A stretch of DNA of 64,000 nucleotides from a virus, in IMG/VR virus record IMGVR_UViG_3300040801_004314, positions 1 to 64,000 of that record; one strand, written 5' to 3'. The notes below the pieces were generated by a model, which searched no databases, was not told the DNA's origin, and saw only the letters and a program-made list of their open reading frames with translations. The position numbers and the translations under genes are program-made. Numbering within the stretch: position 1 is the first letter of the stretch; each line of letters opens with the position of its first letter. Of this stretch, positions 1,291 through 41,767 are shown piece by piece.

Positions 1291-1800
1291 ATGGCTAAAG
1301 AAAAGAAAATGGTTTTTACCTCTAAGATTGTAGAGGAAATGACAAATAAGATAAATGATGGTATCTTGGTTAAGAGATTCGAAAACCCTTGGTTAAAAGG
1401 TGAAGTTGGTGTTAGAAGAAGTGGGGTGGCATTTAAAATGACCAATGATGAACAACAAGAATATGTAAAATGTGCTTTAGATATACATTATTTTATTGAG
1501 AAATATTGTAAAGTTAAAAGAGAAGATGGATCAACTGGACATATAAAACTAAGAGATTACCAATCAGATATATTAGATGATTTTGTAGAGAATAGATTCA
1601 ATATATTAATGGCTAGCCGTCAGGTTGGAAAATGTGTATCTTTTAACACCATTATATCGATTGAGAAAGATAATTATCAATATGATATTAGATTGGGTAA
1701 GCTATACTATAAAATGCTCTCTAAAGAAAGAAAATTGACCTTTTTAGAAAGGTTAAAGGTTAAATTATATGATTTCCTTTATTATCTTGAAGAGAATTAG
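1291..1800 (+). CDS. terL: Terminase large subunit N-terminal extein (114 aa) fused to split-intein N-fragment (55 aa)
   Basis: T4 gp17-like LRDYQ adenine-binding motif and Walker A SRQVGK, followed immediately by intein block A CVSFNTIISI beginning at nt 1633. Confidence 0.9.
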   Translation: MAKEKKMVFTSKIVEEMTNKINDGILVKRFENPWLKGEVGVRRSGVAFKMTNDEQQEYVKCALDIHYFIEKYCKVKREDGSTGHIKLRDYQSDILDDFVENRFNILMASRQVGKCVSFNTIISIEKDNYQYDIRLGKLYYKMLSKERKLTFLERLKVKLYDFLYYLEEN

Positions 1801-3527
1801 GTAATCTTTCTTTCAAATTTAATTTTCCCACAATCCCAGACTTTTAATAAATTTAATTCATTTTCTGAAATACCAGTTTTTGACTTTTTGAAATTAGATT
1901 TATGAATCCTTTTAGCATCTAGTATATACTTATAATCAGGTCTTGTATCATATAATTTATCAAATCCTAGCTTTGTGTATAACCTACCATTAGACCAATC
2001 TTTATCAGCATAACTTATAACCCTTTCCACGTTAACACTTTTGACAAAAAAAGATAGCATTTTAGAAGCACCACCAACAATATTAGTATTTGTTAAATTA
2101 CAAAATCTAGACAAGTTCCAATTACCATCGCTCATCCTTTTTCTACCCTCTAAGTTAGTGAATGTCATTACAGAAACAAGTAAGCCGTTGTAATATAGAC
2201 CAATTTTTTTACTAGAAGGTGATTTACCCTGTATATGATTTTCATCTAAAAATTTATTAACTATTTTAGAATTATTTATAAACTTAACTTCACATTTTCT
2301 AGCCCATATCTTATCGGATATACCTAACCAATTATTTATTTGTGACTTTATTATATTATTCCTATGAATCCAATCATCTTCCCAGATGTGTATTATTCTA
2401 ATTCCCTTGTCTTTAAAATAGTTAGTTTTGTTTATATGGTAATTTTTATCCTTGAATTTATCAGAGTGGAAATATAATCCATTGAATTCAAAGCCTATTT
2501 TCAATTCTGGTAGATAAACATCAATCTCTAAGTTATCTCTGTATGATTTTATTATTTTTCCTTTATAAACACTTTCTATATGCTCTAATAGTTCTTTTTC
2601 TTTTATAGAAACTAATTCACCTATTGGATTACATACGGTACATATTGGTATATTTGCATTTTTCCTCTTTAGATAGTTATCAGATTTTATTTTGAAAACA
2701 CAACCAGACTTACACTTGAACTTATGTGTCTTGTTTCCTTCATAAGAAATATGATTTATATCACTTCCTATTATAGTATCTACTAAGCTATTACTTGTTT
2801 TTTTATAATTATCAACACCCCATTTTTTGATATTATCTTCTTTTACTTTTTTCTTACATTCATCACTTTTTGAATAAGAAGATACACCCCATTTACTTAA
2901 GCTTGTTTTAGTTACCTTTTTTTTATAGTTATCTGTTTTTGAAAAATTATCAACACCGTATTTATTCAGAAGGGTTTCTTTAATTTTAATCTTAACATCA
3001 TCTAATTTGAATGGATTATCAACACCGTACTTGTGCATAACAGTTTCTTTGAATTTGGTTTTATATTCATCTGTTTTGGAATAGTGTTCAACACCCCATT
3101 TATCTATTGCTGTTTGTTTTATTTTTTCTTTATATTCATCTGTTTTAGAATAATGTTCAACACCCCATTTATCTTTTATAGATGATCTTAAGTTAGCTTT
3201 TATTTTATCACTTTTCATAGGATTATCAACGCCATAGTTACTTATATTTGTTTCTTTCCGTTTTTCTATGATACATCTTTTCTCAGAGCAACAGTCTTTA
3301 CTACCATCTTTTTTAATTTTTCTATACTTTCTCCACTCAGTAGAATATTCTTTATTGCAAAAATCACATTTAACATCAACTTTATATCCAGATCCATCAG
3401 GTAGTAACTCTATGGGCAAATGTAAAATTTCATCTAATTCTATGTCTATCTTATCACCATAAGACTTTAATAACTTTTTGTAGTTATAGGATGTGACTTT
3501 AATTTTAGAATAACTTGATAGTAACAT
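1797..3527 (-). CDS. Free-standing homing endonuclease (Vsr/PD-(D/E)XK, Hef-like) inserted antisense between the terminase halves
   Basis: CxxC motifs, tandem KYGVDN/KWGVEH repeats, EIDVYLPELKIGFEFNGLYFHS and IIHIWEDDW nuclease motifs, and a C-terminal SRFC...GGASK...SYAD domain. Confidence 0.75.
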   Translation of the reverse strand: MLLSSYSKIKVTSYNYKKLLKSYGDKIDIELDEILHLPIELLPDGSGYKVDVKCDFCNKEYSTEWRKYRKIKKDGSKDCCSEKRCIIEKRKETNISNYGVDNPMKSDKIKANLRSSIKDKWGVEHYSKTDEYKEKIKQTAIDKWGVEHYSKTDEYKTKFKETVMHKYGVDNPFKLDDVKIKIKETLLNKYGVDNFSKTDNYKKKVTKTSLSKWGVSSYSKSDECKKKVKEDNIKKWGVDNYKKTSNSLVDTIIGSDINHISYEGNKTHKFKCKSGCVFKIKSDNYLKRKNANIPICTVCNPIGELVSIKEKELLEHIESVYKGKIIKSYRDNLEIDVYLPELKIGFEFNGLYFHSDKFKDKNYHINKTNYFKDKGIRIIHIWEDDWIHRNNIIKSQINNWLGISDKIWARKCEVKFINNSKIVNKFLDENHIQGKSPSSKKIGLYYNGLLVSVMTFTNLEGRKRMSDGNWNLSRFCNLTNTNIVGGASKMLSFFVKSVNVERVISYADKDWSNGRLYTKLGFDKLYDTRPDYKYILDAKRIHKSNFKKSKTGISENELNLLKVWDCGKIKFERKIT

Positions 3528-3579: not shown

Positions 3580-5829
3580 ATGAATAAAGTTTTGATAAGT
3601 TTCTTAATAAGAGCAACACGTAAGTTAATAAGATTTTTAGAATGGATAGAGTATATAAATTTAAAATTAGATGAAAATGATGTATCTAAGAAAATAATTA
3701 ATAGTATAAAACTCTCAAATATAAAAGTAAAAACTGATACTGGCTTACAACCAATTTCCGATTTACATATAACACAGCCTTATAAACATTATATTTTAAA
3801 AACAAAGAGTTATGAATTAAAATGTGCAGACAACCATATTGTTTTTGATAAGGATTTAAATCAAGTTTTTGTTAGAGATATTAAGAACGGTGATTATATA
3901 CAAACAGATAATGGTTTAGAAATAGTAGAAAATATATCAAAAACAAGATTTAAAGCATCTATGTTTGATACTACAGTAGACCATCCAAATCACAGGTATT
4001 ACACTAATGGAATATTATCACATAATACTATTTCTTCGTCTATTTTTATACTGCACTTTTTATTATTTAATAATGATAAAAACGTTATGATTATTGCTAA
4101 TAAAGGCGATACTGTGGTCGAGATTGTTGACAAAATAAAATCTATTTATACATTACTGCCATTTTTCCTAAAGAACGGAGTTAAGGTTTGGAATCAAAAA
4201 TCTATAACATTTGAAAATGGATGTAGGATAAAAACATCTGCAAGAACAAAAACACCTGCGGTTGGTTTTACCATTGACCTTTTGTACCTTGATGAGTTTG
4301 CACACATACCATCGAATATTATAAATGCCTTTTATACAGCAGCCTATCCAACTGTATCAGCTATTCAAAACTCTAAAATAATAATAACCTCAACACCTAA
4401 TGGTATGAATTTATTTCATAAGCTTCTTACTGATGCTGAGAGACCTGATGGTGATCCACAGAAAAACAACTATAACCCAATAAGAGTATATTGGTATCAA
4501 GTTCCTGGTAGGTTTGTAACGTATGTAAGGTTAAATGATCATAAACTATACGAACAAAAGTTAGAAGCTGATTATGTTTATGATAAGGTATATGAAGAAT
4601 TCGGTGACAAGACAAAAGTGGAAATGTATTGGAATAATGACATGCAAAAAAATGTTATTGATGTTCATAATAACGAATCGTGTGAAGATTCTGATGTTAA
4701 GAGTTTCAATTTTACAAAGCCAGATGGTAAACAAGTTTCACTTATGGAAGTTGCAGAACTTACAACGTGGAAGGAAGAAGCTATAAAAGATATTGGTGGA
4801 GAAGATGCTTTTAACCAAGAGTATGGTCTTAGGTTTGTGAATGCTAGTAAATCGTTATTAAATGAGAATATAATTGATCATTTACTTAATAATAAAATAA
4901 ACTACGAATGGCAAGAAATATATGAATTTGAAGATAAGCTTCCATTTTCCTATGATGGGTTAACATGGGTTGATGATCATGATATATTTAATCCGATAAA
5001 AAGAAAGGAATATAAGATAATCATGTCCGTTGATTTAGCAGAGGGGTTAGGTCAGGATTATTCTGTTATAAATATATTTAGGATAAATAACAAAGATAAA
5101 GAGTTAATTGAATCTCAAAAGGAAAAATATGATTCCATTACTGACTTCTTTAAATTGCAACAAATTGGGATATATAGAAGTAATATAATTTCCTTAAAGC
5201 AATTAGCTGAGGTTCTTTATATTCTATGTTTTGATTACTTTAATCCCGACAATTTAAAAGTGGTTTTGGAGCTTAATAATTATGGAAATACTTTACTTGC
5301 GGAATTGCCACACGTATTTGATGGGATGAACGATTATGGTTCATTTATATTCACTAGGTATAAACATAGAGTGGATTCGGAAGAAAAGAAAGTGGGATTA
5401 AAAGTTGGATCTAATAAAAACTTAATCGTCAAAGATTATCAAGATTTGATGCTTAGTAAATCATTTGATATAACACATGAAGATACTATAAGAGAAATAA
5501 CAACTTTTGTGAAGCACACTACAAGCTCTGGTAACATAAGATATGCGGCAGATTCAGGTAATGACGATTGCGTTATGACAATTGTTAATGCTAGTTCAAT
5601 GTTTGATAAGGAGGAATTCTCAGAAATGGTAAACGAGTGGATGTCTAAATATATGGACAAAGAAATGTCTGAGTATATAAATAACTGTATGAAAAATTCG
5701 GAATACATAGAACCAGTAGATTACGGACATTTCCTTAGTGTTAAAAGAAATACATTAGGTAGTAAATCTACTGGTTATGGTACAAGTAGGGGTTATGGTA
5801 ATAAAGGTACTGATTGGTTCAAAAGATAA
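3580..5829 (+). CDS. terL: Split-intein C-fragment (149 aa) fused to terminase large subunit C-terminal extein
   Basis: Intein block B-like CADNHIV and blocks F/G YYTNGILSHN|T (HN ends at nt 4026, +1 Thr). Then Walker B LLYLDEFAH, coupling motif ITSTPNG, and nuclease motifs SVDLAEGLGQDYS and DDCVM. Confidence 0.9.
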   Translation: MNKVLISFLIRATRKLIRFLEWIEYINLKLDENDVSKKIINSIKLSNIKVKTDTGLQPISDLHITQPYKHYILKTKSYELKCADNHIVFDKDLNQVFVRDIKNGDYIQTDNGLEIVENISKTRFKASMFDTTVDHPNHRYYTNGILSHNTISSSIFILHFLLFNNDKNVMIIANKGDTVVEIVDKIKSIYTLLPFFLKNGVKVWNQKSITFENGCRIKTSARTKTPAVGFTIDLLYLDEFAHIPSNIINAFYTAAYPTVSAIQNSKIIITSTPNGMNLFHKLLTDAERPDGDPQKNNYNPIRVYWYQVPGRFVTYVRLNDHKLYEQKLEADYVYDKVYEEFGDKTKVEMYWNNDMQKNVIDVHNNESCEDSDVKSFNFTKPDGKQVSLMEVAELTTWKEEAIKDIGGEDAFNQEYGLRFVNASKSLLNENIIDHLLNNKINYEWQEIYEFEDKLPFSYDGLTWVDDHDIFNPIKRKEYKIIMSVDLAEGLGQDYSVINIFRINNKDKELIESQKEKYDSITDFFKLQQIGIYRSNIISLKQLAEVLYILCFDYFNPDNLKVVLELNNYGNTLLAELPHVFDGMNDYGSFIFTRYKHRVDSEEKKVGLKVGSNKNLIVKDYQDLMLSKSFDITHEDTIREITTFVKHTTSSGNIRYAADSGNDDCVMTIVNASSMFDKEEFSEMVNEWMSKYMDKEMSEYINNCMKNSEYIEPVDYGHFLSVKRNTLGSKSTGYGTSRGYGNKGTDWFKR

Positions 5830-6114
5830 TTAACCATTCTTTTCCATGGTCACGCTAAGTCCTTCATTAGAAAGCTTTTCTTTCATTTCTGAAATTGTTT
5901 CAAAATCTCCATACTTAACATCACACACACCTTTAAAGTGAACAATGTGCGCACATTGGTTTGCCTGTTCAGACTCATGACCACATATACTAATTAGACA
6001 TTTAATCACGTGATCAAAAGAATTATGGTCGTCATTGTGTAAGTCTAACCTATAAGGTTTTGATAGAATTTCTTCTACTTCTGTTTTTGTTTGTTCTTCT
6101 GTAATTGTTGACAT
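5830..6114 (-). CDS. clpS: ATP-dependent Clp protease adaptor ClpS
   Basis: YRLDLHNDDHNSFDHVIKCL...ANQCAHIVHFKG matches the ClpS NDD..(T/S)F..V and VH..G motifs. Confidence 0.85.
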   Translation of the reverse strand: MSTITEEQTKTEVEEILSKPYRLDLHNDDHNSFDHVIKCLISICGHESEQANQCAHIVHFKGVCDVKYGDFETISEMKEKLSNEGLSVTMEKNG

Positions 6115-6118
6115 AATT

Positions 6119-6640
6119 TTATTTATTAAATTGTTTTTCAGTTTTGTTTATAACATCTATTATTGTTATTGGTAAAGACTGTTGTTTAGCCCATTCTTCA
6201 AATTTAACTAAATGTTCATGTCTGTCATCGTACATAACAAATTCTTTACACTTAGTTTTATTTATTAAACTTTCAAATAGACTTATCTTAAACCTATATG
6301 TATCACCTTTGTTATTTAGATGTATTTCATCAAATTCCATATTATGCATTCTAAGGATGGACTCAACATTTCTTCTCATGTTTTTGACTTTATCAAGCCT
6401 ACCTGTTGCTAAAATAACATATGAATTAGAATCAGCCTGAGCATCTAAGTAGTGCTTATAAACCCATTCATTTTTAGGAACATAAAATATATCTGGATCT
6501 AGTGTTTCAGCTTTACCCCACCACCCATTGTACATCCAATCAGTGTTGGTTTTTTCTTTCCAAACTTTTTTCCCCTCAATTGGCTCTGGTGAAAAGCATA
6601 AAGTTTTATCGAAGTCAAAGCTGTATAATTTATCAATCAT
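6119..6640 (-). CDS. HAD-superfamily phosphatase (Swiss-army-knife RNA-repair-like HAD)
   Basis: Motif I FDFDKTL, WW motif, motif II LATGR, motif IV MYDDR. Confidence 0.7.
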   Translation of the reverse strand: MIDKLYSFDFDKTLCFSPEPIEGKKVWKEKTNTDWMYNGWWGKAETLDPDIFYVPKNEWVYKHYLDAQADSNSYVILATGRLDKVKNMRRNVESILRMHNMEFDEIHLNNKGDTYRFKISLFESLINKTKCKEFVMYDDRHEHLVKFEEWAKQQSLPITIIDVINKTEKQFNK

Positions 6641-6678: not shown

Positions 6679-7065
6679 TTATGAAAACATTTCTATAAAA
6701 TCTTCTGAAAAGTTTCCCTTTTCATCAAAGACCTCTGCTTCGTTGTATTCATCATCCACTATATATAGGGGGAAATTAGACTTTGAATTATATTTGGAAT
6801 ATACTAAATATTCTTCACCATTTACTTCAACAGTATAGTTACTAACACATAAACCATCATGTTCTTCCTGTCTTTCTATTTCAAAAGGTTGACCTGTCTC
6901 TGGGATTTCTATCACTATACCTTCAGGTGTCAAATCATCTAAAATCTTTAAAGCTAATACACCCATACATTTAAGTAGTTTGGCTTCGTTAAAGAAATCC
7001 CTGGGTATTTCTCTTTGGTAAGAATTTGAGTATGATTCGAATAGCTTTATTCTTTTATTTTTCAT
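6679..7065 (-). CDS. Hypothetical protein with N-terminal IKLFESY motif
   Basis: ORF track; late-type TAATATATA box upstream on the minus strand. Confidence 0.6.
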   Translation of the reverse strand: MKNKRIKLFESYSNSYQREIPRDFFNEAKLLKCMGVLALKILDDLTPEGIVIEIPETGQPFEIERQEEHDGLCVSNYTVEVNGEEYLVYSKYNSKSNFPLYIVDDEYNEAEVFDEKGNFSEDFIEMFS

Positions 7066-8076: not shown

Positions 8077-8586
8077 ATGAAACGTATTCAAAATTTTGAA
8101 GCCCATAGAGGTAATAAAGTACAAGAAACTAAAGCACAAGAAACTAAAGTACAGGAAGCTGTAATTGAGGTTGAAGATACTTATAAAGTAAGAACAAGTA
8201 TTGATGTTCCTAAGAGCTTTGTAAATGCTTACATAAAAAAGGTTAAGGATGAGACTGGTGAAGATATCAGCCAATTGTTTGGTGATTTTGATATTGCAGA
8301 AGAACTAGTAAAACATGTAACTGATAAATATCTCGATAATGATATTATTTCTGCTAGAGCTTTAACTGGTGGTGAAGAAGAGGAAGAGGAAGAGGAAGAA
8401 GAAGTTCAACCTGAAATGAAAGAAGAAGAGGAAGCACAGGCACAAGAGGAAGAACAGGAAGAAGAACAGGAAGAAGAACAGGAAGAAAAAGCTGAAATGG
8501 AAGAAGAAGCACAAGAAGAAGGTGATGATGATTTCGAAGATGTTCAGGACTTAGACGAAGAAGAAGATGAAGATCTTCCTATCTAA
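8077..8586 (+). CDS. Highly acidic protein, possible prohead core/internal protein
   Basis: Poly-Glu C-terminal half, N-terminal MKRIQNFE motif, and a late-type promoter at about 8044. Confidence 0.55.
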   Translation: MKRIQNFEAHRGNKVQETKAQETKVQEAVIEVEDTYKVRTSIDVPKSFVNAYIKKVKDETGEDISQLFGDFDIAEELVKHVTDKYLDNDIISARALTGGEEEEEEEEEEVQPEMKEEEEAQAQEEEQEEEQEEEQEEKAEMEEEAQEEGDDDFEDVQDLDEEEDEDLPI

Positions 8587-9031: not shown

Positions 9032-9063
9032 CTTGTGAGAACTATTTATTTGTTTTATATTTG
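9032..9063 (+). promoter_or_regulatory. Bacteroidota sigma-A type promoter driving the tracrRNA/CRISPR locus
   Basis: (C)TTG at 9032-9035, a 20-nt spacer, then TATATTTG (TAnnTTTG -7 box) at 9056-9063, just upstream of the anti-repeat. Confidence 0.7.
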
Positions 9064-9067
9064 CAGT

Positions 9068-9199
9068 GTATTAATTGATTACCTTAACACAACCAACGAT
9101 AGCTTAGGCTATCGGGAGTGAATTTCAGTAGATTAAGTAGAGCAAGACATACATTGGCTCGATATACAGTAACTCCACTAACCTACACTAGTAGGATTT
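9068..9199 (+). ncRNA. tracrRNA copy 1 (stand-alone)
   Basis: Anti-repeat GTATTAATTGATTACCTTAACACAAC (9068-9093) is complementary to the first ~26 nt of the CRISPR repeat with a bulge. It is followed by hairpins CGATAGC-TTAG-GCTATCG, GGAGT...ACTCC and CCTAC-ACTA-GTAGG. Confidence 0.85.
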
Positions 9200-9300
9200 A
9201 AAAATTAAGGTAAAAGTTCTTTTTTTATTGATTAAAAAATGATTTCTAATAGTCATTAATGTGGTTAACTTACTAACAACCAATTATTTATAAGAGGTAG

Positions 9301-9645
9301 GTTGTGAAAGGTAATCATATTAGTACTATTCACAACGGTATTTAATAAACTAGCTATGGATGTTATGTTGTGAAAGGTAATCATATTAGTACTATTCACA
9401 ACTATGGAAATCCCGACCCGAACAAGCCAGAGGTTGTGAAAGGTAATCATATTAGTACTATTCACAACAAAATGCAAGATATACTAACTAGAGAGCTAGT
9501 TGTGAAAGGTAATCATATTAGTACTATTCACAACATAATAGAAATGTAAAGTCCACCTCATATAGTTGTGAAAGGTAATCATATTAGTACTATTCACAAC
9601 AAATTTAATAATTGATTGCAGTGATTGTCTGTTGTGAAAGGTAAT
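9301..9645 (+). CRISPR. Type II CRISPR array: five identical 36-bp repeats, a truncated sixth, and five 30-nt spacers
   Basis: Repeat GTTGTGAAAGGTAATCATATTAGTACTATTCACAAC at 9301, 9367, 9433, 9499 and 9565; partial GTTGTGAAAGGTAAT at 9631. Spacers at 9337-9366, 9403-9432, 9469-9498, 9535-9564 and 9601-9630. Orientation is inferred from the anti-repeat pairing. Confidence 0.97.
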
Positions 9646-9770
9646 ATAATAATACCTTAACACAACCAACGATAACTTATGTTATCGGGAGTGAATTTCA
9701 GTAGATTAAGTAGAGCAAGACATACATTAGCTCGATTTAGTAACTCCACTAACCTACTTTGGTAGGATCT
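9601..9770 (+). ncRNA. Putative natural single-guide RNA (spacer 5 + truncated repeat + loop + tracrRNA copy 2)
   Basis: GTTGTG-A-AAGGTA (9631-9643), a 9-nt loop ATATAATAA, TACCTT-AA-CACAAC (9653-9666), then a near-identical copy of the tracrRNA 3' hairpins ending CCTAC-TTTG-GTAGG (9753-9766). Confidence 0.8.
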
Positions 9771-9790
9771 AAAAATAAATACATATTATA

Positions 9791-9821
9791 CTTGTTATAT
9801 TAATAAATAGTGTTATATTTG
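9791..9821 (+). promoter_or_regulatory. Bacteroidota sigma-A type promoter upstream of cas9
   Basis: CTTG at 9791-9794, a 19-nt spacer, then TATATTTG at 9814-9821. Confidence 0.65.
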
Positions 9822-9854: not shown

Positions 9855-12800
9855 TTGTCAAGTAACAACTCACTTCTGGATAATTTTTTAAAAAATAAAA
9901 ATATTGATAACATCATGGGCATTGATGTTAATAAAAATAACTACGTCTCTTATTTAGTTATTGATGGTGAGCATAATCAATACTTCAAAATATTTAATGA
10001 AAAGAAAAAAACTACTGTCAGTAACACACTGAAAAATAAAAAGAAAAGAAAAGAAAACTTTTTCGACACCTCTAGCAAAATATTAAAATCCAGTCACACA
10101 AAACTTCATAAACACCGAAAAGAATTAAAGGGAGATTATAAATTCAACCCAGTGTATTTAGCTCATTGCCTAGTTAATAAAAATGAGCTTCCTAAAATGA
10201 ACTTAACTGTTGATGGGGTCTCTTACTCAGATGAAGATGTTGCATTCTATATTATATCTTTGTGGATGTTGAACAGCAGGGGCGCACAATCTCAAAAGTC
10301 AAAAATAAAATTAAGTAAAGAAGATCAAAAAGTAACAAAGAAACTTTCTAAAAAGGGTGTAAAAGCAATAGGTAAAAGAAAGTTAGAAGATATTATAAAA
10401 TCAATACCAAATGATTTAGAAGATCACAAGGTTAGTTATTATCCTACTATCAGGTCTAATAAGATAAATATGATGTTTAGCCCTAATGATTTAAGTTTTT
10501 TTAATCAAAATGATAACAAAGAGTTTTATATTGATATCATAAGTAAATTAGGTGGTAAATATTCTAGGAATGCTAGAAAATTAGCTAACATTATATTTTA
10601 CAATAAAAACCAGAATGAGAGAAAAAATGAAAAGAGAGGTGACTGTTCTTTTTTGAATCATAAAAAAGAATCACATAAAAGGGGTGATAAAAATAATCCT
10701 TATCAAGAATTAAGAATTACTCACTTGAAATTAAACACCTCTAACGAAAAAGATATTAAAGAACTCAATGATGAGTATAAAGATAAGTTTATAAAAAAGC
10801 TTACAGATAAGTCAAATAATGGGTTTATCAATAGTGTTATCATAGATATCTTAAAGTATGATCCGTTTTTTGATAACGATGAGCTATTTTTTAAAAAGGG
10901 TAAAAATAGCATTTTGAACATAGATAATGTAGCAGATATATTTTCTTCAATTTACAATTCTTACGAGACAGGCAAGCCATTAAAGTCATTTAAAGAGTTT
11001 AATTTGACAGCATCCAAGAAAGATTCAATATTAGAATATTTTGAAGAAAGTGGTAGTGTGGTGAGTGATGTTTCTGATAAATTTGCCAAGATATACTCTA
11101 ACTTTTTATTTAAGGGCAGAATCAATAGAACAGGCAATATGCTTAACTTATTAGTCTTGAATAAGGTCTATTCTACTGATGAGGGATATGATAAAAATAG
11201 AGCATGTATATCTAATAAGAAAATCAATGATGTTAAATCTTTTATGGAGAAAGATCTAGGTCTTCTAAAGATTAGCGAAATAGATAATATAATAAATGAT
11301 AAGAGCATTAGGTTTAGGTCTAATGGTTTGGAAGCTAAATTAAAGTTCGAAATTCAGAATTATATAAACAGTGTTTTGAAAAAAAAATGGACTGATCCTA
11401 ACGTACAACAAAAAATGTTTTTAATGGTAGATAATATAATGAATGTTATATTTTCGGATAATCCAAAAAACAGAACTCAACTCATACAAGGAATTGAAAA
11501 AATAAGAAATATAGATTATGTTATAGAATCTACTAGAGCTAAGTCTAACAAGGAAGAGAATGCATTCGAACATATTTTCAATAGAGTGATTAAAAATGTG
11601 TCTCTAAATAAATATCCTTCTAATAATTATAGTAGGTCTAGAATCTTATATGAAAGTGGTGGCATTGATGTTTATGACGGTAACCCTTTATCACTTGAAG
11701 ATACTGATAAAGACCATGTTGTTCCACGCAGTTGGGTAACTTCATATGGTAATAATATATCCAATTTAGTTCCGTGTAAACATTCATTAAACAAGGAAAA
11801 GGATAATAACCTTCCTTTATCTAGTGACTTAAATTTGAACAAGTCTGGATTTAAAAAGCAATTGAATAATATCTATGGAACATCCAGAATTGATGATATT
11901 TGTGAGGATATTTCTATTTATATAGAAGAAGAACACGGAGGTAAACTTTATAATAATGACGTTTGTTATATTGATAGCCATTTGGACTTTTACCATAAAG
12001 AAACTGATAAAAAAGGCAATATAAAGACTAATGGCATATTTAAAAAAATAGACAAATATGACCTTAGAAGACATTTAGTATCATATTTTAATAAAAAAAT
12101 GAACATTTTGTTAATGGAATCGAGTAAAGATGAGTTAGAGATGGAGTTTGGATCTTCTCTACTGTCTAATATTTCTCACTCGGTCTCTGCACTAACTGAT
12201 ATCCTAACTGATGTTTTCGGTGTTGATAGAAGTAGAATAAGCTACACACCAAGACAATTTTCTTATATAGGGAAAATTAGAGGTAAGAGAATATTAGATT
12301 TACCAAAAGATAGAGATTGGAATCATCATCACATGGTAGACTGCTTTTTGTTATTATTGTTAAAACATAGAAAGAATGTATTCCACTCAAAGTCTACTAG
12401 GGAAACTAAATATAAACCTAACTTAAATGATGTTAGTGATATGTATAATTATTTTAAAGAGATGGATATTTATATAAATGACGATAAGGATATTGAGGAT
12501 ATAATAAATGTTCTTAAAATGGTCGAAAATAATACTAAGCCTACATTTAAAAAGGTTAGATCTTTTAAAAAGAGAGTTTCCGTAGATGATAATGGTAAAA
12601 AAACAACTACTATGTCACCACGTGGTAAAATGTTCGGGGATACAATATACGGTTCTTATAAAAAGGATGGCGTTGTGATGTCTAAAGGGTATGAGGTCAA
12701 GGGAATTGTTTTGGATAAGGATAAAGATGGGAAGGATATAAAACAGGACAATGTAATAGTTAAGAATCCAAACACTGGTGAAGACTTCATTTTAGATAAG

Positions 12801-13355
12801 AAGGATAAAAAAAATAGTAATTTACGTAAAATGCCTGAAGGTGCTTATATTGAAAACACTACTAATAAAGAGGAAAATTTATACTTGGGAAAGAAAGTCT
12901 CAAAAAATAAATATCATTCAAAAAAGAAGGGAAGTAATGCATCTCATTCAGTATATTTTCATTTAAATGATAAAGGGAAAGCTGTATCAAAAGTGGTAAA
13001 TAAGTTTAGTATGATAGCAAAAAAAGATGAGAATGGGAATGTTGGCGTTAAGTGCAGTGAAGAAATAAAACGTGAAAATAATATCCCAAGTGATGCTATT
13101 AGAATATCAAAAAAGGATGTATTTAATTTTAGTGGGTATATACATAATTTTAAGGGAGTTGATTATAAGATGAACTCTCTTTATAAAATAAATGCTATAA
13201 ACAAAAATATAATAGTAACTGAAATAAGTACTAATTTAAGCTATAAAACCAAAGAAGAGGAAGCTGAGTTTCTAGTTAGTAATAAAATTGCATTTAGTAT
13301 TTCTTATGAGAAATTCTATAAACATTTTGGTAAAACCATTCATTTAGTAAAATAA
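9855..13355 (+). CDS. cas9: Divergent Cas9 (type II-C-like), 1166 aa; start uncertain (TTG at 9855 or ATG at 9915)
   Basis: RuvC-I IMGIDVNKN; REC motifs RG.QSQK and IIFY...RGDCSF...KRGDKNNPYQELRI; DPNVQQ; RuvC-II YVIESTR; HNH DVYDG...DKDHVVPRS...NLVPC...LNKEKDNNLP; RuvC-III KDRDWNHHHMVDCFL. Adjacent to the array and tracrRNA. Confidence 0.9.
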   Translation: MSSNNSLLDNFLKNKNIDNIMGIDVNKNNYVSYLVIDGEHNQYFKIFNEKKKTTVSNTLKNKKKRKENFFDTSSKILKSSHTKLHKHRKELKGDYKFNPVYLAHCLVNKNELPKMNLTVDGVSYSDEDVAFYIISLWMLNSRGAQSQKSKIKLSKEDQKVTKKLSKKGVKAIGKRKLEDIIKSIPNDLEDHKVSYYPTIRSNKINMMFSPNDLSFFNQNDNKEFYIDIISKLGGKYSRNARKLANIIFYNKNQNERKNEKRGDCSFLNHKKESHKRGDKNNPYQELRITHLKLNTSNEKDIKELNDEYKDKFIKKLTDKSNNGFINSVIIDILKYDPFFDNDELFFKKGKNSILNIDNVADIFSSIYNSYETGKPLKSFKEFNLTASKKDSILEYFEESGSVVSDVSDKFAKIYSNFLFKGRINRTGNMLNLLVLNKVYSTDEGYDKNRACISNKKINDVKSFMEKDLGLLKISEIDNIINDKSIRFRSNGLEAKLKFEIQNYINSVLKKKWTDPNVQQKMFLMVDNIMNVIFSDNPKNRTQLIQGIEKIRNIDYVIESTRAKSNKEENAFEHIFNRVIKNVSLNKYPSNNYSRSRILYESGGIDVYDGNPLSLEDTDKDHVVPRSWVTSYGNNISNLVPCKHSLNKEKDNNLPLSSDLNLNKSGFKKQLNNIYGTSRIDDICEDISIYIEEEHGGKLYNNDVCYIDSHLDFYHKETDKKGNIKTNGIFKKIDKYDLRRHLVSYFNKKMNILLMESSKDELEMEFGSSLLSNISHSVSALTDILTDVFGVDRSRISYTPRQFSYIGKIRGKRILDLPKDRDWNHHHMVDCFLLLLLKHRKNVFHSKSTRETKYKPNLNDVSDMYNYFKEMDIYINDDKDIEDIINVLKMVENNTKPTFKKVRSFKKRVSVDDNGKKTTTMSPRGKMFGDTIYGSYKKDGVVMSKGYEVKGIVLDKDKDGKDIKQDNVIVKNPNTGEDFILDKKDKKNSNLRKMPEGAYIENTTNKEENLYLGKKVSKNKYHSKKKGSNASHSVYFHLNDKGKAVSKVVNKFSMIAKKDENGNVGVKCSEEIKRENNIPSDAIRISKKDVFNFSGYIHNFKGVDYKMNSLYKINAINKNIIVTEISTNLSYKTKEEEAEFLVSNKIAFSISYEKFYKHFGKTIHLVK

Positions 13356-14095: not shown

Positions 14096-14148
14096 TTTTA
14101 CTTGTGTAATCTAATACATTATCTTATATTTGTATAAAACTAAACACT

Positions 14149-21331: not shown

Positions 21332-23083
21332 ATGATAAAATATAACTTAATACCAATAGAAACGAAGGGATGTAGAAAAATAAAACATTACGAATCCTTG
21401 GGTTATGACATTAATAAAGATGTCATGATGGTTAAAGTAGAACATGTAACAAAGGGTTCACGTAAAAAGGTTGCTGTTATATGTGATTACTGTAACAAGG
21501 AAAGTATTACAACATTAAAGCAATATTTTCTAAATATATCAAATGGTGATAAATATGCATGTTGCCAAAAGTGCGGATCTATGAAGTCAAAAGAAACTTT
21601 ATTGGAGAGGTATGGTGTAACACATCATATGAAATTAGATGAAGTTAAAGAAAATGTCAAAAATACAAATCTAAGAAAATACGGAGTTGAATATTTACAA
21701 CAATCTGATGAATTTAAAAATAAATCAAAAGAAACTCTTCTTAATAAATATGGTGTTGACCATATTTCAAAATCAGAAATATATAAAGATAAGTTTAAAA
21801 AGACTTGTCTTATAAATCATGGTGTTGAGTATCCTATGATGTCAGATAAAATAAGAAATAAATCTAAAACCACTTCACTTAAAAAATATAAAGTAGATAA
21901 TCCAGCAAAATCTAATATTGTTAAAGGAAAAGTAAAAGAAACGAATCTAAAAAAATATGGAAATGTTAATTATCTAAAAACAGAAGATTATAAACACAAG
22001 AATAAAATAACATTGAATAAAAAGTGGAATAGTGACAACATAATGAAATCTGATACTTTTAGATATGGTAAATTTAGCATATCTAAAGATAAAGGTTATA
22101 TAAAATATTTAGGTGATAGACACTCACTAATGGAATGTGATAATGGTCATCATTTTAAAATACACATAGACAACTTTATAAAAAGAAAGATTAGCGAAAT
22201 ACCTGTTTGTACTATCTGTAATCCAATAGGGGATACAAAGTCATTTAAAGAAATAGAAATCTTCGATTATATAAACTCCGTATATAGTGGTGAAATAATA
22301 CAATCATACAGAGATGGATATGAAATAGATATTTATTTACCAGAGTTAAATTTAGGTTTTGAATTTAATGGATTGTATTTTCACTCTGAGAAATTTAAAG
22401 ATAAAAATTATCATATAAATAAGACTGACTATTTTAAAGACAGGGGGGTTAGAATAATACATATATGGGAAGATGATTGGATTCATAGAAATAATATAAT
22501 AAAATCCCAGATAAATAATTGGTTAGGGATTTCTAATAAGTTATGGGCTAGAAAATGTGAAGTTAAAATTATTAAAAATAATAAACATGTGTCTAATTTT
22601 TTGAATAATAATCACATACAAGGAAATGGTAGATCCTCTGTTAAAATTGGATTGTTTTATAATAAAGAAATAGTAAGTATAATGACTTTTAATCACTTAG
22701 AGGGTAGAAATAAAATGTCTTCTAATCATTGGAACATAAATAGGTTCTGTAATAAAAAGGATGTATCTGTTATTGGTGGTGCAAGTAAAATATTAAAATA
22801 CTTTATAAAAGAATACTCACCAAATAGAATAATAAGTTATGCTGATAATGATTGGTCTAATGGTAATATGTACAATAAGTTAGGATTTAGTATATCTAAA
22901 ACACCAAAGCCAGACTATAAGTATATTGTAGGTGGTAAAAGAATACATAAATCAAATTTTAAAAAATCAAAATTAAAAACGAATTTAACTGAGAACAAAC
23001 ATATGAAAAATATGAATGTTCTCAGAATTTGGGACTGTGGTAAAATAAAATTTGAGCTTATACTAAATAAAATCATCAGTTAA
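21332..23083 (+). CDS. Homing endonuclease paralog (Vsr/PD-(D/E)XK, Hef-like)
   Basis: Same architecture as 1797..3527; EIDIYLPELNLGFEFNGLYFHS. Confidence 0.75.
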   Translation: MIKYNLIPIETKGCRKIKHYESLGYDINKDVMMVKVEHVTKGSRKKVAVICDYCNKESITTLKQYFLNISNGDKYACCQKCGSMKSKETLLERYGVTHHMKLDEVKENVKNTNLRKYGVEYLQQSDEFKNKSKETLLNKYGVDHISKSEIYKDKFKKTCLINHGVEYPMMSDKIRNKSKTTSLKKYKVDNPAKSNIVKGKVKETNLKKYGNVNYLKTEDYKHKNKITLNKKWNSDNIMKSDTFRYGKFSISKDKGYIKYLGDRHSLMECDNGHHFKIHIDNFIKRKISEIPVCTICNPIGDTKSFKEIEIFDYINSVYSGEIIQSYRDGYEIDIYLPELNLGFEFNGLYFHSEKFKDKNYHINKTDYFKDRGVRIIHIWEDDWIHRNNIIKSQINNWLGISNKLWARKCEVKIIKNNKHVSNFLNNNHIQGNGRSSVKIGLFYNKEIVSIMTFNHLEGRNKMSSNHWNINRFCNKKDVSVIGGASKILKYFIKEYSPNRIISYADNDWSNGNMYNKLGFSISKTPKPDYKYIVGGKRIHKSNFKKSKLKTNLTENKHMKNMNVLRIWDCGKIKFELILNKIIS

Positions 23084-26160: not shown

Positions 26161-26207
26161 TATAAGCACTTTTGTTAAACTCTTCTAGTAAAAGTTATAT
26201 AACAAAT

Positions 26208-27767
26208 ATGATAAAAGAGAAAACATTAGAGGTAAAGGGACATTCAAGAAATATAAAATACTATTCTTCTAAAGGATATGATATAAAGGTAGGCAAAGTC
26301 ATTGAAGTTAAAATAGAAGATTTGTCTAAAGGGACTACTTTTAAAGTATCATGTCTATGTGATAAATGTGAAGCCGAAACAATAAAAGAATTCAGGGAAT
26401 ATTACAACTACACTAAGGGATTAACAGAAAGCTATTACTGTAAAAAATGCAAAAGTATAAAATCTGAGAAAACTAATCTAAGTAAATATGGTGTTAAGAA
26501 TCCAATGCAAAACCAAGAAATAAAGGACAAGCTCAAAAATTCATTGATGGATAAATACGGTGTTGATCACTATTCTAAAACAGAGGAATATAAAACAAAA
26601 TTTAAGCAAACATCTATTAAAAATTGGGGTGTTGATAACCCTTCTAAAAATGCAGATATAGTAAATAAGATAAGTAAGAAAAATACAAACAGGATCAAAT
26701 CTGAATCTTTCCGAAAAGAATCTAAAAATACAAAGCAAAGGAATACTTGGATGAGATATGCAGAAAAGTTACCAAGTGGATATAATGCTTTGGGCTACAG
26801 TGATAATGTCTTTAAAATAAAGCATGATAAATGTGGCAATGAATTTGACATAACTAAGTTTCTGTTATACAATAGGCAGAGAAGTGAGACTATTATATGC
26901 TTAAAGTGTAATCCAATAACAATATACAGATCATCTTTTGAGGTAGAAATAGGAGAATACTTAAACACACTAGGTGTTCAATATGAACAGAGAAATAGAT
27001 CTATCCTTAACGGACAAGAGTTAGACTATCTAATACCAGAACATAACATAGCTATTGAATGTAATGGATTATATTGGCATTCAGAAGCATTCAAAAGCAA
27101 AAGCTACCACAAAAACAAAACAATGATGTGTCAAGAGAAGGGAATCACTCTTCTACATATTTGGGAAGATGATTGGGCTAATAAAAGAGAAATTATAAAG
27201 TCGGTAATAAAGTATAAGCTTGGTATTATTGACAGTAAGATATGGGCAAGAAAGTGTGATATAAGGAATGTAGATACAAAAGAGTATAAAGATTTTTTAA
27301 ACAATAACCATATACAGGGATATGCACCATCTTCTATAAATATTGGATTGTATCACAATGAAGAATTAGTAAGCCTTATGACCTTTGGGTGGAGGCGAAC
27401 TAATAATAAAAGAGAATATGAACTTATAAGGTTTTGTAATAAAATAGGCACAACTGTAATTGGTGGTGCATCAAGGTTGTTTAAATATTTTATAAATAAT
27501 AATGAGGTAGAAGAAATTATTTCTTATGCAGATATATCATTATTCGAGGGTGGGCTTTATAAAAGTCTAGGTTTTGAAAAAGTAAATGTATCAGATCCCA
27601 ATTATTTCTGGGTAGTTGATGGTGTTAAAAGACATAGATACAACTACTCTAAGAGAAAATTAGTTAACCAAGGATATGACTCGAATAAAACAGAGGTAGA
27701 AATAATGAATGATAGAGGTTATTATAGAATTTTTTCAACTGGTCAAGAAAAATACTCATATAAGTAA
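26208..27767 (+). CDS. Homing endonuclease paralog (Vsr/PD-(D/E)XK, Hef-like)
   Basis: KYGVKN repeats, ELDYLIPEHNIAIECNGLYWHS and HIWEDDW. Track start 26172; ATG at 26208. Confidence 0.75.
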   Translation: MIKEKTLEVKGHSRNIKYYSSKGYDIKVGKVIEVKIEDLSKGTTFKVSCLCDKCEAETIKEFREYYNYTKGLTESYYCKKCKSIKSEKTNLSKYGVKNPMQNQEIKDKLKNSLMDKYGVDHYSKTEEYKTKFKQTSIKNWGVDNPSKNADIVNKISKKNTNRIKSESFRKESKNTKQRNTWMRYAEKLPSGYNALGYSDNVFKIKHDKCGNEFDITKFLLYNRQRSETIICLKCNPITIYRSSFEVEIGEYLNTLGVQYEQRNRSILNGQELDYLIPEHNIAIECNGLYWHSEAFKSKSYHKNKTMMCQEKGITLLHIWEDDWANKREIIKSVIKYKLGIIDSKIWARKCDIRNVDTKEYKDFLNNNHIQGYAPSSINIGLYHNEELVSLMTFGWRRTNNKREYELIRFCNKIGTTVIGGASRLFKYFINNNEVEEIISYADISLFEGGLYKSLGFEKVNVSDPNYFWVVDGVKRHRYNYSKRKLVNQGYDSNKTEVEIMNDRGYYRIFSTGQEKYSYK

Positions 27768-34451: not shown

Positions 34452-36002
34452 TTACACTTTCATTTCGAACAGGAATGAACCAGTGTCATATACTCTATAG
34501 TAGCCACGACCATTCATTATTTGATGCTCGGACTTGCCTTTGTCATACCCCTCTTTAACCAGTACATCTTTCCTAAAGTTAAACCTGTTTATTCTTAACC
34601 CCTCGTCTTTGTGAAAATAGAAATAATTAGGAACTGTTTCTTTTATCTTATTAAATCCTATCTTTTCGTACAAATTACCTGTAGACCAATCTTTACTAGC
34701 ATATGATATTATTTTACTAGGCTGATATGTTCTTATAAAATATTTAAGTAGCTTTGAAGATCCCCCTACAACGTTTGTGTTTAATTTACTACAAAATCTA
34801 AGTAATTCGAAAACATCTTCATCGGTATTCTTATATCCTAAATTTCTTCTAGTTTTAGAAAAAGAAATAACAGAAACTAACTCATTATAAAAATACAAAC
34901 CTATCTTATGTTTACTAGGAGCATATCCCTGTAAATGGTTTTCATTAACAAATTTCTTATATGTAGGAGGTGTTAACTCTTTTATCTCACATTTTCTAGC
35001 CCATATTTTCCTAGTGTTATTCCCCAGTAAATTAGATATTCTACTTTTTATTATATCTCTTTTGAATTTCCAATCATCTTCCCATATATGAATTATTTGA
35101 ATTCCCTTGGATTCAAAAAACTTATTTTTTTCCTTATGGTAATTATTTTCTTTATACCTTTCACTGTCCCACCATAAGCCATTACATTCGAAGCCTATAT
35201 TTAATTCGGGTAGGTATATATCTATTTCATATTTTTTAAACTCTCTACACTTATCTTTTATAACACCATCATAGTTATTTTTCACAAAGTCCAGAACACT
35301 ACTTTCAAAAAAGGAATCATTGTTATTCGGGTTACATAATAAACAAGGATCTATATCAAATCTATTTCTCTGGTTAAATAAGGTGCTTGAAATATTAAAT
35401 TCCTTTTTACACTTAGGGCATATAAGCTTAAAATTGCTATCCTTTATCCCTATTACATCGTATCCTAAGTCAGTAATTCTTTTTTTAGTTTTCTCTAACC
35501 TAATATTTGGTAAGACTTCTTTTAATCTTTTACTTATTTTGTCTTTTGTTTCTTTAGCTTTAGAGATATTATCAACACCCCACGATTTTCTTACTGTGCT
35601 TTCCCTTTTAATGTTTATATTTTCTTTCTTCTTATCAGAGAACTTAGACTTAGTGAGGTTTGCTTTTCTAGTCATCTCACTTCTCATTTCTTTATCAGCA
35701 TTGCACTTTTTTATTTCTGCTAACCTACTTTTTTTAATGTTGATGTCTTTGTGTGTATGCTTTGCTGAGCATTTCTTACTACAGTACTTTCTATATCCTT
35801 TATAGAATTTTATAAATGACACTTTGTTATCACAGTTTAAACATTTAGGCTTTTCAGAGAAACCATTTTGATACAACCAAATTTTTTCAGATAGATTTAA
35901 TACATCATCTTCTTTGATAAAGTTGTTCATCTTCTCATAATATAAAGGATGCTCATTCTTCAATTTACTCTCTGTGAGTCCCCTAGTTGTCTTAAATACC
36001 AT
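34452..36002 (-). CDS. Homing endonuclease paralog (Vsr/PD-(D/E)XK, Hef-like)
   Basis: EIDIYLPELNIGFECNGLWW, HIWEDDW and ELLRFC...GGSSKLL. Confidence 0.75.
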   Translation of the reverse strand: MVFKTTRGLTESKLKNEHPLYYEKMNNFIKEDDVLNLSEKIWLYQNGFSEKPKCLNCDNKVSFIKFYKGYRKYCSKKCSAKHTHKDINIKKSRLAEIKKCNADKEMRSEMTRKANLTKSKFSDKKKENINIKRESTVRKSWGVDNISKAKETKDKISKRLKEVLPNIRLEKTKKRITDLGYDVIGIKDSNFKLICPKCKKEFNISSTLFNQRNRFDIDPCLLCNPNNNDSFFESSVLDFVKNNYDGVIKDKCREFKKYEIDIYLPELNIGFECNGLWWDSERYKENNYHKEKNKFFESKGIQIIHIWEDDWKFKRDIIKSRISNLLGNNTRKIWARKCEIKELTPPTYKKFVNENHLQGYAPSKHKIGLYFYNELVSVISFSKTRRNLGYKNTDEDVFELLRFCSKLNTNVVGGSSKLLKYFIRTYQPSKIISYASKDWSTGNLYEKIGFNKIKETVPNYFYFHKDEGLRINRFNFRKDVLVKEGYDKGKSEHQIMNGRGYYRVYDTGSFLFEMKV

Positions 36003-40138: not shown

Positions 40139-41767
40139 ATGAATAAACAAAGATTTAAAATAATAAATGATATACTTCAAGAAAAGCCTACTAGATTAAG
40201 AGAGTCGTATTTTATTAAAAACTATAATGATGTCTATAATAAAATAGTAAAATATACTGAAGGCATAGATTTACCTTTTAAACAAAGAATGTGGCACTGG
40301 ATAAATGAACTACCGACTATTTATGTCTGTAAGTGTGGTAAACCTACTAGTTTCTATAAGAATTGGAAACATGGATATAGGAGTGCATGTTCACCAAAGT
40401 GCGCACAAACAAATGATAAAACCAAGGAAAAAAGAAGAAAAACTACATTAGAAAAATATGGCGTAGATAATATTGCTAAATTGGAAGAAATTAAAAAAAA
40501 GCAAGAGGAAACTAACATACAAAAGTATGGTCATAAATCTACATTTCAAAACGAAGAAGTTCAGAAAAAATGGAGAAAAACTATCGAAGATAGATATAGT
40601 GTAGATCATTATTTTAAAACTAATGAGTTTAAGAAAAAGGCTAAGAAAACATCTAAAAAAAAATACGGGAAAGAACATTACGTACAATCAAAATCATACA
40701 AAGAAAAACTTAAAGAAATTGGATTCAATGATATATTGAAACAAATAAATATCAATAAACATCTTAGGAAATATGATAATATAGGTTTAGAATTTATAGA
40801 TTTAAGCGATAGAATATTAACATTAAAAGGTGAATGCGGACATCAATTTGAAATACATTATGATTCTTTAAAACGAAGAATAGAGAATTCTTATGATTAT
40901 TGCACTATATGTAATCCAGTTAATTCAGTACAATCACAAGATGAGAAAGTACTAATAAAGTGGTTAATGGAAAAAAATATAGATCTCGTAGAGAAGGATC
41001 GAAGCTTAGGTATTGAGCTAGATATATTAATACCTTCCAAGAAAATAGCAATAGAGTTTAATGGATTATATTGGCATTCTGAATTATTTAAAAATAACAA
41101 TTACCATTTAGACAAAACTACAATATGTAGAAACAATGATATAAGATTAATACACATATGGGAAGATGATTGGAAATACAATAAAACAATTGTAAAATCT
41201 ATTATTTTGAATAGCCTTGGGCTGATTGAGAAAAAAGTATATTCTAGAAAATGTGAAATAACTACCTTAAGTAACAAAGAAAAAAACTTATTTTTAGAAA
41301 AAAATCACATACAAGGGAAGTGTGTATCAAGTGTTAATTTGGCACTTATGTATAATAATGAAGTAGTCTCTGTTATGACATTTGGGAAACGCAAAATGAG
41401 TAATAAAAACGAATTTGAGTTAATAAGGTTTTGTAATAAAGTAAACAATGTAGTAATCGGTGGGGCTTCAAGATTATTTAACTATTTCATTAACAATTAC
41501 CAAAGTGATCATATAATTTCTTTTGCTGATATATCTCATTTTGAAGGTGGTGTATATAAGAAATTGGGATTTAAATTTGTACACAGGACTATCCCAAATT
41601 ATTGGTGGGTAGTTAGTGGTATTAGGTTTCACCGCTTCACCTATAATAAAAAAAGGTTAGTGAAAGAAGGTGCTGATCCTAATAAAACCGAAGTTCAAAT
41701 AATGTATGATAAAGGATATTTTAGAATATTTGGTTGTGGTCAAGATAAGTACGTTTATCATAGGTAA
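40139..41767 (+). CDS. Homing endonuclease paralog (Vsr/PD-(D/E)XK, Hef-like)
   Basis: KYGVDN repeats, ELDILIPSKKIAIEFNGLYWHS and HIWEDDW. Confidence 0.75.
   Translation: MNKQRFKIINDILQEKPTRLRESYFIKNYNDVYNKIVKYTEGIDLPFKQRMWHWINELPTIYVCKCGKPTSFYKNWKHGYRSACSPKCAQTNDKTKEKRRKTTLEKYGVDNIAKLEEIKKKQEETNIQKYGHKSTFQNEEVQKKWRKTIEDRYSVDHYFKTNEFKKKAKKTSKKKYGKEHYVQSKSYKEKLKEIGFNDILKQININKHLRKYDNIGLEFIDLSDRILTLKGECGHQFEIHYDSLKRRIENSYDYCTICNPVNSVQSQDEKVLIKWLMEKNIDLVEKDRSLGIELDILIPSKKIAIEFNGLYWHSELFKNNNYHLDKTTICRNNDIRLIHIWEDDWKYNKTIVKSIILNSLGLIEKKVYSRKCEITTLSNKEKNLFLEKNHIQGKCVSSVNLALMYNNEVVSVMTFGKRKMSNKNEFELIRFCNKVNNVVIGGASRLFNYFINNYQSDHIISFADISHFEGGVYKKLGFKFVHRTIPNYWWVVSGIRFHRFTYNKKRLVKEGADPNKTEVQIMYDKGYFRIFGCGQDKYVYHR

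Follow-up and report, generated by a model that had tools for sequence, protein, structure and literature searches.

Cas9-based type II CRISPR systems have been described on huge phages (Al-Shayeb et al. 2020, Nature 578:425, PMC7162821). Most of the phage effectors in that description keep their catalytic residues, almost all of the phage systems are without Cas1, Cas2, and Cas4, and the arrays of huge phages are compact, with a median of six repeats (PMC7162821). The kind of system in which a Cas9 without adaptation genes resides on a huge phage has been known since 2020, and the locus presented here fits that description exactly. It lies in a 64,000-nucleotide stretch of viral DNA (hereafter the window; positions 1 to 64,000 of IMG/VR virus record IMGVR_UViG_3300040801_004314) and includes the open reading frame (ORF) at 9855-13355 on the plus strand. 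As judged from sequence comparison and structural modelling, the product of this ORF is probably a functional Cas9 that acts as sole effector in a type II interference module on a very large phage. What is new is the degree of divergence of the protein, the isolation of its family, and the layout of the accompanying RNAs. The contig is a fragment of a very large phage: the whole record measures 100,664 bp, is linear, and is without terminal repeats, and its estimated completeness of about 22% (CheckV) implies a phage genome of several hundred kilobases.

The effector gene reads as follows:

9855..13355 (+): cas9, 1166 codons, open throughout, TTG start favoured

On profile comparison and predicted fold, the product of this gene is a genuine Cas9. 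Eleven reference Cas9 genes, all from database records, served for the comparison; eight are annotated as Cas9 (Listeria, Nicoliella, Ilyobacter, Bacillus thuringiensis, Pontibacillus, Limnohabitans, Pseudosulfitobacter, and Pasteurella) and three are the long ORF under a tblastn match (SpCas9 on a cloning plasmid, Subdoligranulum, and the GenBank fragment MT837457). The truncated Pasteurella ORF is inside the hhalign reference profile and outside the tree discussed below. Aligned with hhalign, the family formed by the window's Cas9 and its five full-length homologues matches the profile of all 11 Cas9s with a probability of 97.3% and an E of 2.8e-11, in a single co-linear alignment of 943 columns that spans positions 14-1145 of the family and 4-1067 of the 1091 profile columns. 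The match to the II-A subset has a probability of 95.3% (E 2.3e-8, query 16-1141), that to the II-C subset a probability of 81.9% (E 1.1e-5, query 11-1147), and the HNH domain aligned to SpCas9 alone gives an E of 1.1e-4. Pfam HNH_4 is found at residues 611-654 (E 2.2e-6) and is matched in all six family members.

Comparisons of fold agree with the profile alignment. Foldseek with the full-length AlphaFold2 (AF2) model returns Cas9 chains for all 50 of the top 50 PDB hits (best E 1.4e-8), and VIA-align gives Z values of 10-12.7, with model residues 16-895 covering, in Sp, St1, Sa, and Cj Cas9, the whole region that begins with RuvC-I and closes with RuvC-III. When the C-terminal 272 residues are modelled alone, the predicted local distance difference test (pLDDT) score is 73-94 over the last ~140. 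In a Foldseek-independent scan of 48,161 PDB chains, the best matches of this C-terminal model are the regions of AnaCas9, CdCas9, and AceCas9 that interact with the protospacer-adjacent motif (PAM), at Z 6.4-6.7, followed by YnpsCas9, an IscB TID domain, St1Cas9, and SaCas9; the matches to Cas9 PAM-interacting (PI) regions are modest (Z 5.3-6.7 over 112-133 residues). Despite the modest Z, the C-terminus is read as a Cas9-type PI domain because C-termini of Cas9 or IscB make up nine of the ten top-ranked chains; the best Foldseek hits of the C-terminal model are likewise Cas9 chains. In the ESM Atlas, all ten nearest clusters are HNH_4 plus RuvC_III families that are named Cas9 or carry Csx12, and viral members are present in two of the top three. 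These look-alikes serve as a lead only.

An earlier reading of the window, made from the letters of the DNA (hereafter the sequence-only reading), had called the product a highly divergent Cas9, and had held that profiles or a predicted structure without a Cas9 fold would speak against it. Both the profile comparison over the full length and the fold searches give Cas9, and the high divergence is borne out by the silence of the Cas9-specific models and by HNH_4 as the sole Pfam match. The same reading had found the C-terminal PAM-interacting region unrecognisable, which no longer stands now that the fold identifies a domain of the Cas9 PI type.

Several observations nevertheless weigh against a functional Cas9. 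The family alignment is shallow (six sequences, effective number of sequences 2.4), and the full-length AF2 model is poor, with a pLDDT of 53.7, a predicted template modelling score of 0.33, and pLDDT below 40 in the HNH region. The models TIGR01865 (cas_Csn1), RuvC_III, Cas9_RuvC, and Csx12 give no match even at a cut-off of E 10 with scoring confined to this record, although the control of the Csx12 model is silent as well. Finally, the record, the GenBank phages, and IMG/VR yield a convincing protospacer for none of the five spacers of the adjoining array, and hence no PAM or sign of use. The failure of the curated Cas9 models is a measure of divergence, not of structure or mechanism.

The order of domains is that of Cas9. 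Residues were paired by hhalign of the six-member family against the Cas9 references, including SpCas9, and the protein is laid out as follows:

9906..10004 (+): RuvC-I, residues 18-50; D24 (motif GID) pairs with SpCas9 D10; AF2 beta-strands at 20-24, 29-36, and 39-46
10020..10094 (+): bridge helix, residues 56-80, Lys-rich; R65 pairs with SpCas9 R74; predicted helix 61-77
10095..11474 (+): recognition (REC) lobe, residues ~81-540, mostly helical in the model and co-linear with SpCas9 ~104-720; boundaries approximate
11502..11549 (+): RuvC-II, residues 550-565; E558 (IESTR) pairs with SpCas9 E762 and Ilyobacter Cas9 E502
11640..11834 (+): HNH domain, residues 596-660, with D620, H621, N637, and N646; Pfam HNH_4
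12147..12404 (+): RuvC-III, residues 765-850; H825/H826/D829 (HHHMVD) pair with SpCas9 H982/H983/D986; invariant in the family
12537..13352 (+): C-terminal WED and PAM-interacting region, residues 895-1166; fold matches to Cas9 PI regions

The Asp, Glu, and His/Asp residues of RuvC follow one another in the Cas9 order, the HNH domain is inserted between RuvC-II and RuvC-III as in Cas9, and a helical lobe of ~460 residues separates RuvC-I from RuvC-II. Within the HNH domain, D620/H621 (DKDH) pair with D839/H840 of SpCas9, N637 (NLV) with N854, and N646 (LNKEK) with N863. The same catalytic equivalences hold against Ilyobacter Cas9, and the catalytic residues are invariant across the six family members (32-84% identity) with one exception, a Glu in place of D620 in the member P0003. 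The complete set of RuvC-I, RuvC-II, RuvC-III, and HNH motifs listed by the sequence-only reading is thus present, each motif pairing correctly with its SpCas9 residues. The bridge helix, LKNKKKRKENFF against ARRRYTRRKNRI in SpCas9, keeps one Arg (R65, at R74 of SpCas9), whereas three Arg are replaced by Lys and three are lost. Its Lys-rich character, also noted from the sequence and confirmed by hhalign to SpCas9, follows the preference for Lys over Arg of the whole protein (Lys 14.3%, Asn 10.7%, Ile 8.3%, Arg 3.4%) in AT-rich DNA (29% G+C, within 28-30%).

Two start codons had been left for choice, TTG 9855 and ATG 9915. A start at ATG 9915 leaves only 3 residues ahead of the RuvC-I Asp. At least 8 residues precede that Asp in all five homologues, and NFLK at positions 10-13 is common to the three closest. 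Because the homologues keep these residues, their N-termini favour TTG 9855. A Shine-Dalgarno signal cannot choose between the two, since the checked genes of the phage have none: the sequence is absent upstream of all 18 start codons checked in the window, where the upstream regions are A/T-rich. This lack suggests a host that may begin translation without such pairing (e.g., one of the Bacteroidota). At 1166 residues the protein falls between the II-C references (1015-1100 residues) and the II-A references (1334-1368 residues) used here, and it is mid-sized, not compact as first described.

Relatives of this Cas9 are few. NCBIfam, PADLOC, and PHROGs hold no match for it, and neither phmmer nor the family profile finds a match among PDB sequences. 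A word-indexed search of 5.8 billion clusters yields two relatives, of 84% and 47% identity, and an exhaustive search of 1.84 billion representatives with a HMMER profile yields five full-length members and one fragment, with no conventional Cas9 among the matches. The nuclease lobe of one member (P0004), searched against the 5.8 billion clusters, matches nothing outside the family. Neither IMG/VR nor 185,579 prokaryote species genomes hold Cas9 relatives, and tblastn of the whole Cas9 against GenBank phages and PLSDB plasmids returns none. A partial relative of 41% identity is found on a 3.6-kb metagenome contig that ends within the gene, and an array was not found in the 1.1 kb upstream of that gene. 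The family thus has six known members, the other full-length ones being 32-84% identical to the window's Cas9; since full length and catalytic residues are kept down to 32% identity, selection on function is indicated. So far the family is known from viruses and metagenomes only, as a deep and rare branch.

Among 50,697 GenBank phage records, including the 635-kb LR745206.1, tblastn at E up to 1 finds no similar Cas9. The closest match to the Cas9 HNH domain in these records is the HNH motif of a gene of LR745206.1, an uncultured phage, which encodes a 157-residue HNH endonuclease at 5740-6213 (38.8% over 48 residues, E 0.6); as a candidate Cas9 it is rejected, being a free-standing 157-residue HNH gene. 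The sole full-length match to a II-C Cas9 query in the same records is MT837457.1 (‘UNVERIFIED: Bacteriophage sp.’, 6.8 kb), whose 1100-residue, full-length II-C-type Cas9 groups with the Cas9 of a Subdoligranulum plasmid; this entry may be bacterial DNA filed as phage.

The trans-activating CRISPR RNA (tracrRNA), the array, and a repeat-tracrRNA fusion are all located directly upstream of cas9 on the same strand. The elements of this region, together with a further copy of the promoter-like motif, are the following:

9032..9063 (+): promoter-like motif 1, CTTGTG..TTATATTTG, sigma-70-like (TTGTGA-17-TATATT); putative start of tracrRNA copy 1
9068..9208 (+): tracrRNA copy 1, a ~26-nt anti-repeat with three hairpins on its 3' side; predicted 5' and 3' ends
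Between tracrRNA copy 1 and the array: leader of ~90 bp
9301..9630 (+): CRISPR array of 36-nt repeats (GTTGTGAAAGGTAAT...CACAAC), all five the same, together with five 30-nt spacers
9631..9779 (+): 15-nt remnant of a sixth repeat, short loop, and second anti-repeat with tracrRNA copy 2 (copy 2 at 9646-9779)
9791..9821 (+): promoter-like motif 2, ~30 nt upstream of cas9, TTGTTA-16-TATATT with TG; putative promoter
14101-14132: promoter-like motif 3, which precedes a gene at 14101

The tracrRNA anti-repeat complements the repeat over its 5' part, and the predicted fold of the fused repeat-tracrRNA is a repeat:anti-repeat stem with three hairpins after it. Since the truncated repeat is fused to tracrRNA copy 2, the DNA encodes spacer 5 as part of a complete single guide (9601-9779). 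The two tracrRNA copies are separated in the first stem by a compensatory change of G:C to A:U. A relative of the locus in a public seawater run keeps tracrRNA copy 1, the leader, repeat 1, and the fused repeat with tracrRNA copy 2, and carries a compensatory change in the fused guide (9675 A>G with 9682 T>C). Identical fragments of the locus occur in two microbial-mat runs, which probably come from the source sample. An Rfam scan returns sub-threshold miRNA noise only, and the repeat and the tracrRNA core are not found elsewhere in IMG/VR.

A motif of 31-32 nt, CTTGT[GT]...TTATATTTG, is shared by positions 9032, 9791, and 14101, and suggests a promoter class or a repeated regulatory element of the phage. 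The copy at 9032-9065 recurs in other mat-metagenome contigs with unrelated flanks.

The sequence most probably encodes an active RNA-guided nuclease, because the catalytic set is complete and a full guide-RNA apparatus adjoins the gene. In the proposed mechanism, the anti-repeat of the tracrRNA would pair with each repeat over its 5' part, and fused tracrRNA copy 2 would pair in cis for the last spacer. Cas9 would bind the repeat:anti-repeat duplex and the 3' hairpins, and would find DNA complementary to the spacer beside a PAM read by its C-terminal domain. Both strands would then be cut, the target strand by HNH and the other by RuvC. A gene for RNase III was not found in the 100-kb record, and the RNAs are presumably processed by the RNase III of the host or by the product of a gene in the rest of the phage genome; the fused guide would need no RNase III to pair. 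By analogy with other huge-phage CRISPR systems, the module would most likely serve to attack rival phages or other DNA present in the infected cell. Expression, RNA processing, cleavage, the PAM, and the role are the parts of this proposal that we infer.

The genome-encoded guide also bears on an unlikely alternative, in which the Cas9 is mainly a programmable repressor, the spacer 5 guide is directed to a partial match in the phage or its host, and cleavage guided by the array is secondary. The guide at 9601-9779 is not exchangeable and is kept in the seawater relative, and a natural single guide, the long form of the tracrRNA, is known to repress cas9 at its promoter in Streptococcus pyogenes (bioRxiv 10.1101/2020.05.21.102756). 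Spacer 5, however, has no match with up to 8 mismatches and no 11-14-nt seed in the 100-kb record (~22% of the genome), and the invariance of the nuclease residues in the family argues for selection on cutting.

The content of the array turns over. The seawater relative keeps the repeat and leader but has unrelated sequence in place of spacer 1 (9337-9364); a source of adaptation therefore exists, or existed, somewhere in this lineage. Profiles of Cas1, Cas2, Cas4, and Csn2 find no match in the 100,664-bp record, so that the remark of the sequence-only reading on the lack of cas1, cas2, cas4, and csn2 in the window holds for about one fifth of the genome. Because ~78% of the genome lies outside the record, this lack does not extend to the phage as a whole. 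The same reading had the system borrow Cas1-Cas2 from its host. That idea finds no support, as a search with the ends of the repeat fixed and its middle left open finds it in none of the 185,579 species genomes of prokaryotes, and the other ~78% of the genome could encode adaptation genes.

As for targets, no spacer has a match in the 100-kb record itself, either at 8 or fewer mismatches or through a 3' seed of 11-14 nt; comparison of the spacers with GenBank phages gives nothing significant, and 20-mer scans of IMG/VR are empty for spacers 1, 3, 4, and 5. The 3' 21 nt of spacer 2 are found exactly at 6817-6837 (-) of a GC-rich viral contig, IMGVR_UViG_3300037133_000058, where its 5' part agrees at 3 of 10 nt. 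Mature Cas9 guides often use just the 3' 20 nt of the spacer. The match is most simply a chance one, given the disagreement of the 5' 10 nt and an exact 20-mer query of a very large collection, and it is rejected as a protospacer.

The extreme divergence of the protein, the lack of a target for any spacer, and the absence of adaptation genes from view in the 100-kb record would fit a captured bacterial Cas9 that has lost activity or is decaying and has become uncoupled from its array. Such a relic is very improbable: the frame of 1166 codons is intact, the five other full-length members (32-84% identity) keep the catalytic residues, the repeats are identical, the tracrRNA helices covary, and spacer content differs between relatives.

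The surroundings of the locus are those of a phage genome. The window encodes a large terminase, a portal, a prohead protease, a major capsid protein, a UvsX-like recombinase, a clamp loader, a ribonucleotide reductase, and tail fibre proteins, and the ‘ordinary phage genes’ that had been recognized on the flanks are borne out by these hallmark genes. A contig of bacterial or plasmid origin, carrying an ordinary cellular type II locus, would be compatible with a record that is linear, 22% complete, and lacking terminal repeats. It is extremely unlikely in view of the terminase, portal, prohead protease, major capsid, UvsX, and tail fibre genes and the many homing endonucleases around cas9, and because neither Cas9 relatives nor the repeat occur in the 185,579 prokaryote species genomes. 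The small ORFs that flank the CRISPR-cas9 locus match no family.

Dispersed among the structural and replication genes are five paralogous HNH homing endonucleases of 516-583 residues (phrog_3339 / phrog_559, E down to 1e-122), and the load of selfish nucleases in the window is unusually heavy. Their positions are as follows:

1797-3527 (-): HNH homing endonuclease, phrog_3339 / phrog_559
21332-23083 (+): HNH homing endonuclease, phrog_3339 / phrog_559
26172-27767 (+): HNH homing endonuclease, phrog_3339 / phrog_559
34452-36002 (-): HNH homing endonuclease, phrog_3339 / phrog_559
40139-41767 (+): HNH homing endonuclease, phrog_3339 / phrog_559

Just upstream of the CRISPR locus, a 169-residue ORF (8077-8586, +) ends in a long, Glu-rich acidic tail encoded by GAA repeats; it matches no family. 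Phage proteins of high acidity can mimic DNA.

The sequence-only reading had proposed that the protein be placed by phylogeny. A quick maximum-likelihood tree of 16 sequences (LG+C20 with posterior mean site frequencies; root unknown; composition bias flagged for most rows) joins the six family proteins in one clade with a support of 100, outside the II-A and II-C references, seven of which are of II-C type. The placement proposed earlier is settled in part: in a tree whose references are limited to II-A and II-C, the family falls outside both sets. The branch by which the family joins the II-A/II-C references measures ~3 substitutions per site, compared with ~2.3 for the split between II-A and II-C. 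Assignment to II-A fails on this position and on Csn2, which was not found in the 100-kb record (22% of the genome); assignment to II-C fails on the absence of cas1 and cas2 from the record and on the position of the family outside the II-C references. The PI fold, closest in the model to II-C structures, points weakly to a distant II-C origin, and the ESM Atlas hits point weakly to an affinity with II-B-like families.

The II-D structures 9lgi, 9auf, and 8w2z are among the fold hits and are ranked below the II-A and II-C chains. The II-D effectors (Cas9d) have ~600-1050 residues (PMC9755519), a range that the 1166 residues of this protein exceed. Zn-ribbon motifs in the REC region and close to RuvC-II and a guide RNA of large size are further marks of II-D. 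An identity as IscB (OMEGA) is ruled out by the 1166 residues, the helical lobe of ~460 residues, and the CRISPR array and tracrRNA beside the gene. IscB proteins have ~400-500 residues, lack a REC lobe, and work with an omega RNA in place of a CRISPR array. Tentatively, and with considerable doubt, the six-member family might be viewed as a distinct, phage-restricted branch of type II at the level of a subtype. Such a branch would have split from cellular Cas9 before or independently of the divergence of II-A and II-C, would employ a genome-encoded single guide beside a crRNA (CRISPR RNA):tracrRNA pair, and would renew its spacers without linked Cas1-Cas2.

The profile models used in annotation do not reach all real Cas9 effectors, and in this case detect a generic HNH alone; surveys of the prevalence of type II systems on viruses probably undercount them. 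For reconstructions of Cas9 evolution the family is a far outlying point, and it bears on whether huge phages keep long-lived effector lineages or borrow repeatedly from their hosts. The RNA parts are already defined, including a naturally fused single guide, and a PI domain only remotely like the characterized ones could recognize a new PAM. The difference between the arrays of the mat and the seawater relative, with adaptation genes not in view, raises the question of where the spacers come from.

A weak pointer to type II-B (Csx12-type) comes from several of the nearest ESM Atlas clusters of the family, which carry Pfam Csx12, two of them with viral members; unlike II-B, no cas4 was found in the record, and the Csx12 model gives no match (its control being silent). 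With type II-A Cas9 (e.g., SpCas9, Listeria, Nicoliella) it shares alignable catalytic residues, a 36-nt repeat with 30-nt spacers, and pairing through the 5' part of the repeat. In contrast to II-A, the identity is ~15% (131 of 871 aligned columns), the protein is ~200 residues shorter with a smaller REC lobe, csn2 was not found in the record, and the family is outside the II-A clade. The Cas9s of type II-C (Ilyobacter polytropus, Bacillus thuringiensis, and a Limnohabitans plasmid; also Ana, Cd, Ace, Nme, and Cj) resemble it in the order of domains, in similar size (1015-1100 residues), in the lack of csn2 and cas4 beside cas9, and in their PI domains, which are the best structural matches of its C-terminal domain. 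Unlike II-C Cas9s, however, it has a weaker profile match to the II-C subset than to II-A (E 1.1e-5 against 2.3e-8) and lies outside the II-C clade, and II-C loci normally have cas1-cas2 next to cas9. The systems of huge phages (PMC7162821) are alike in their setting on a very large phage, their conserved catalytic residues, an array that here has six repeats, and Cas1, Cas2, and Cas4 that are not in view. Compared with these systems as that paper describes them, the present locus differs in having two copies of the tracrRNA, one of which is fused to the terminal repeat.

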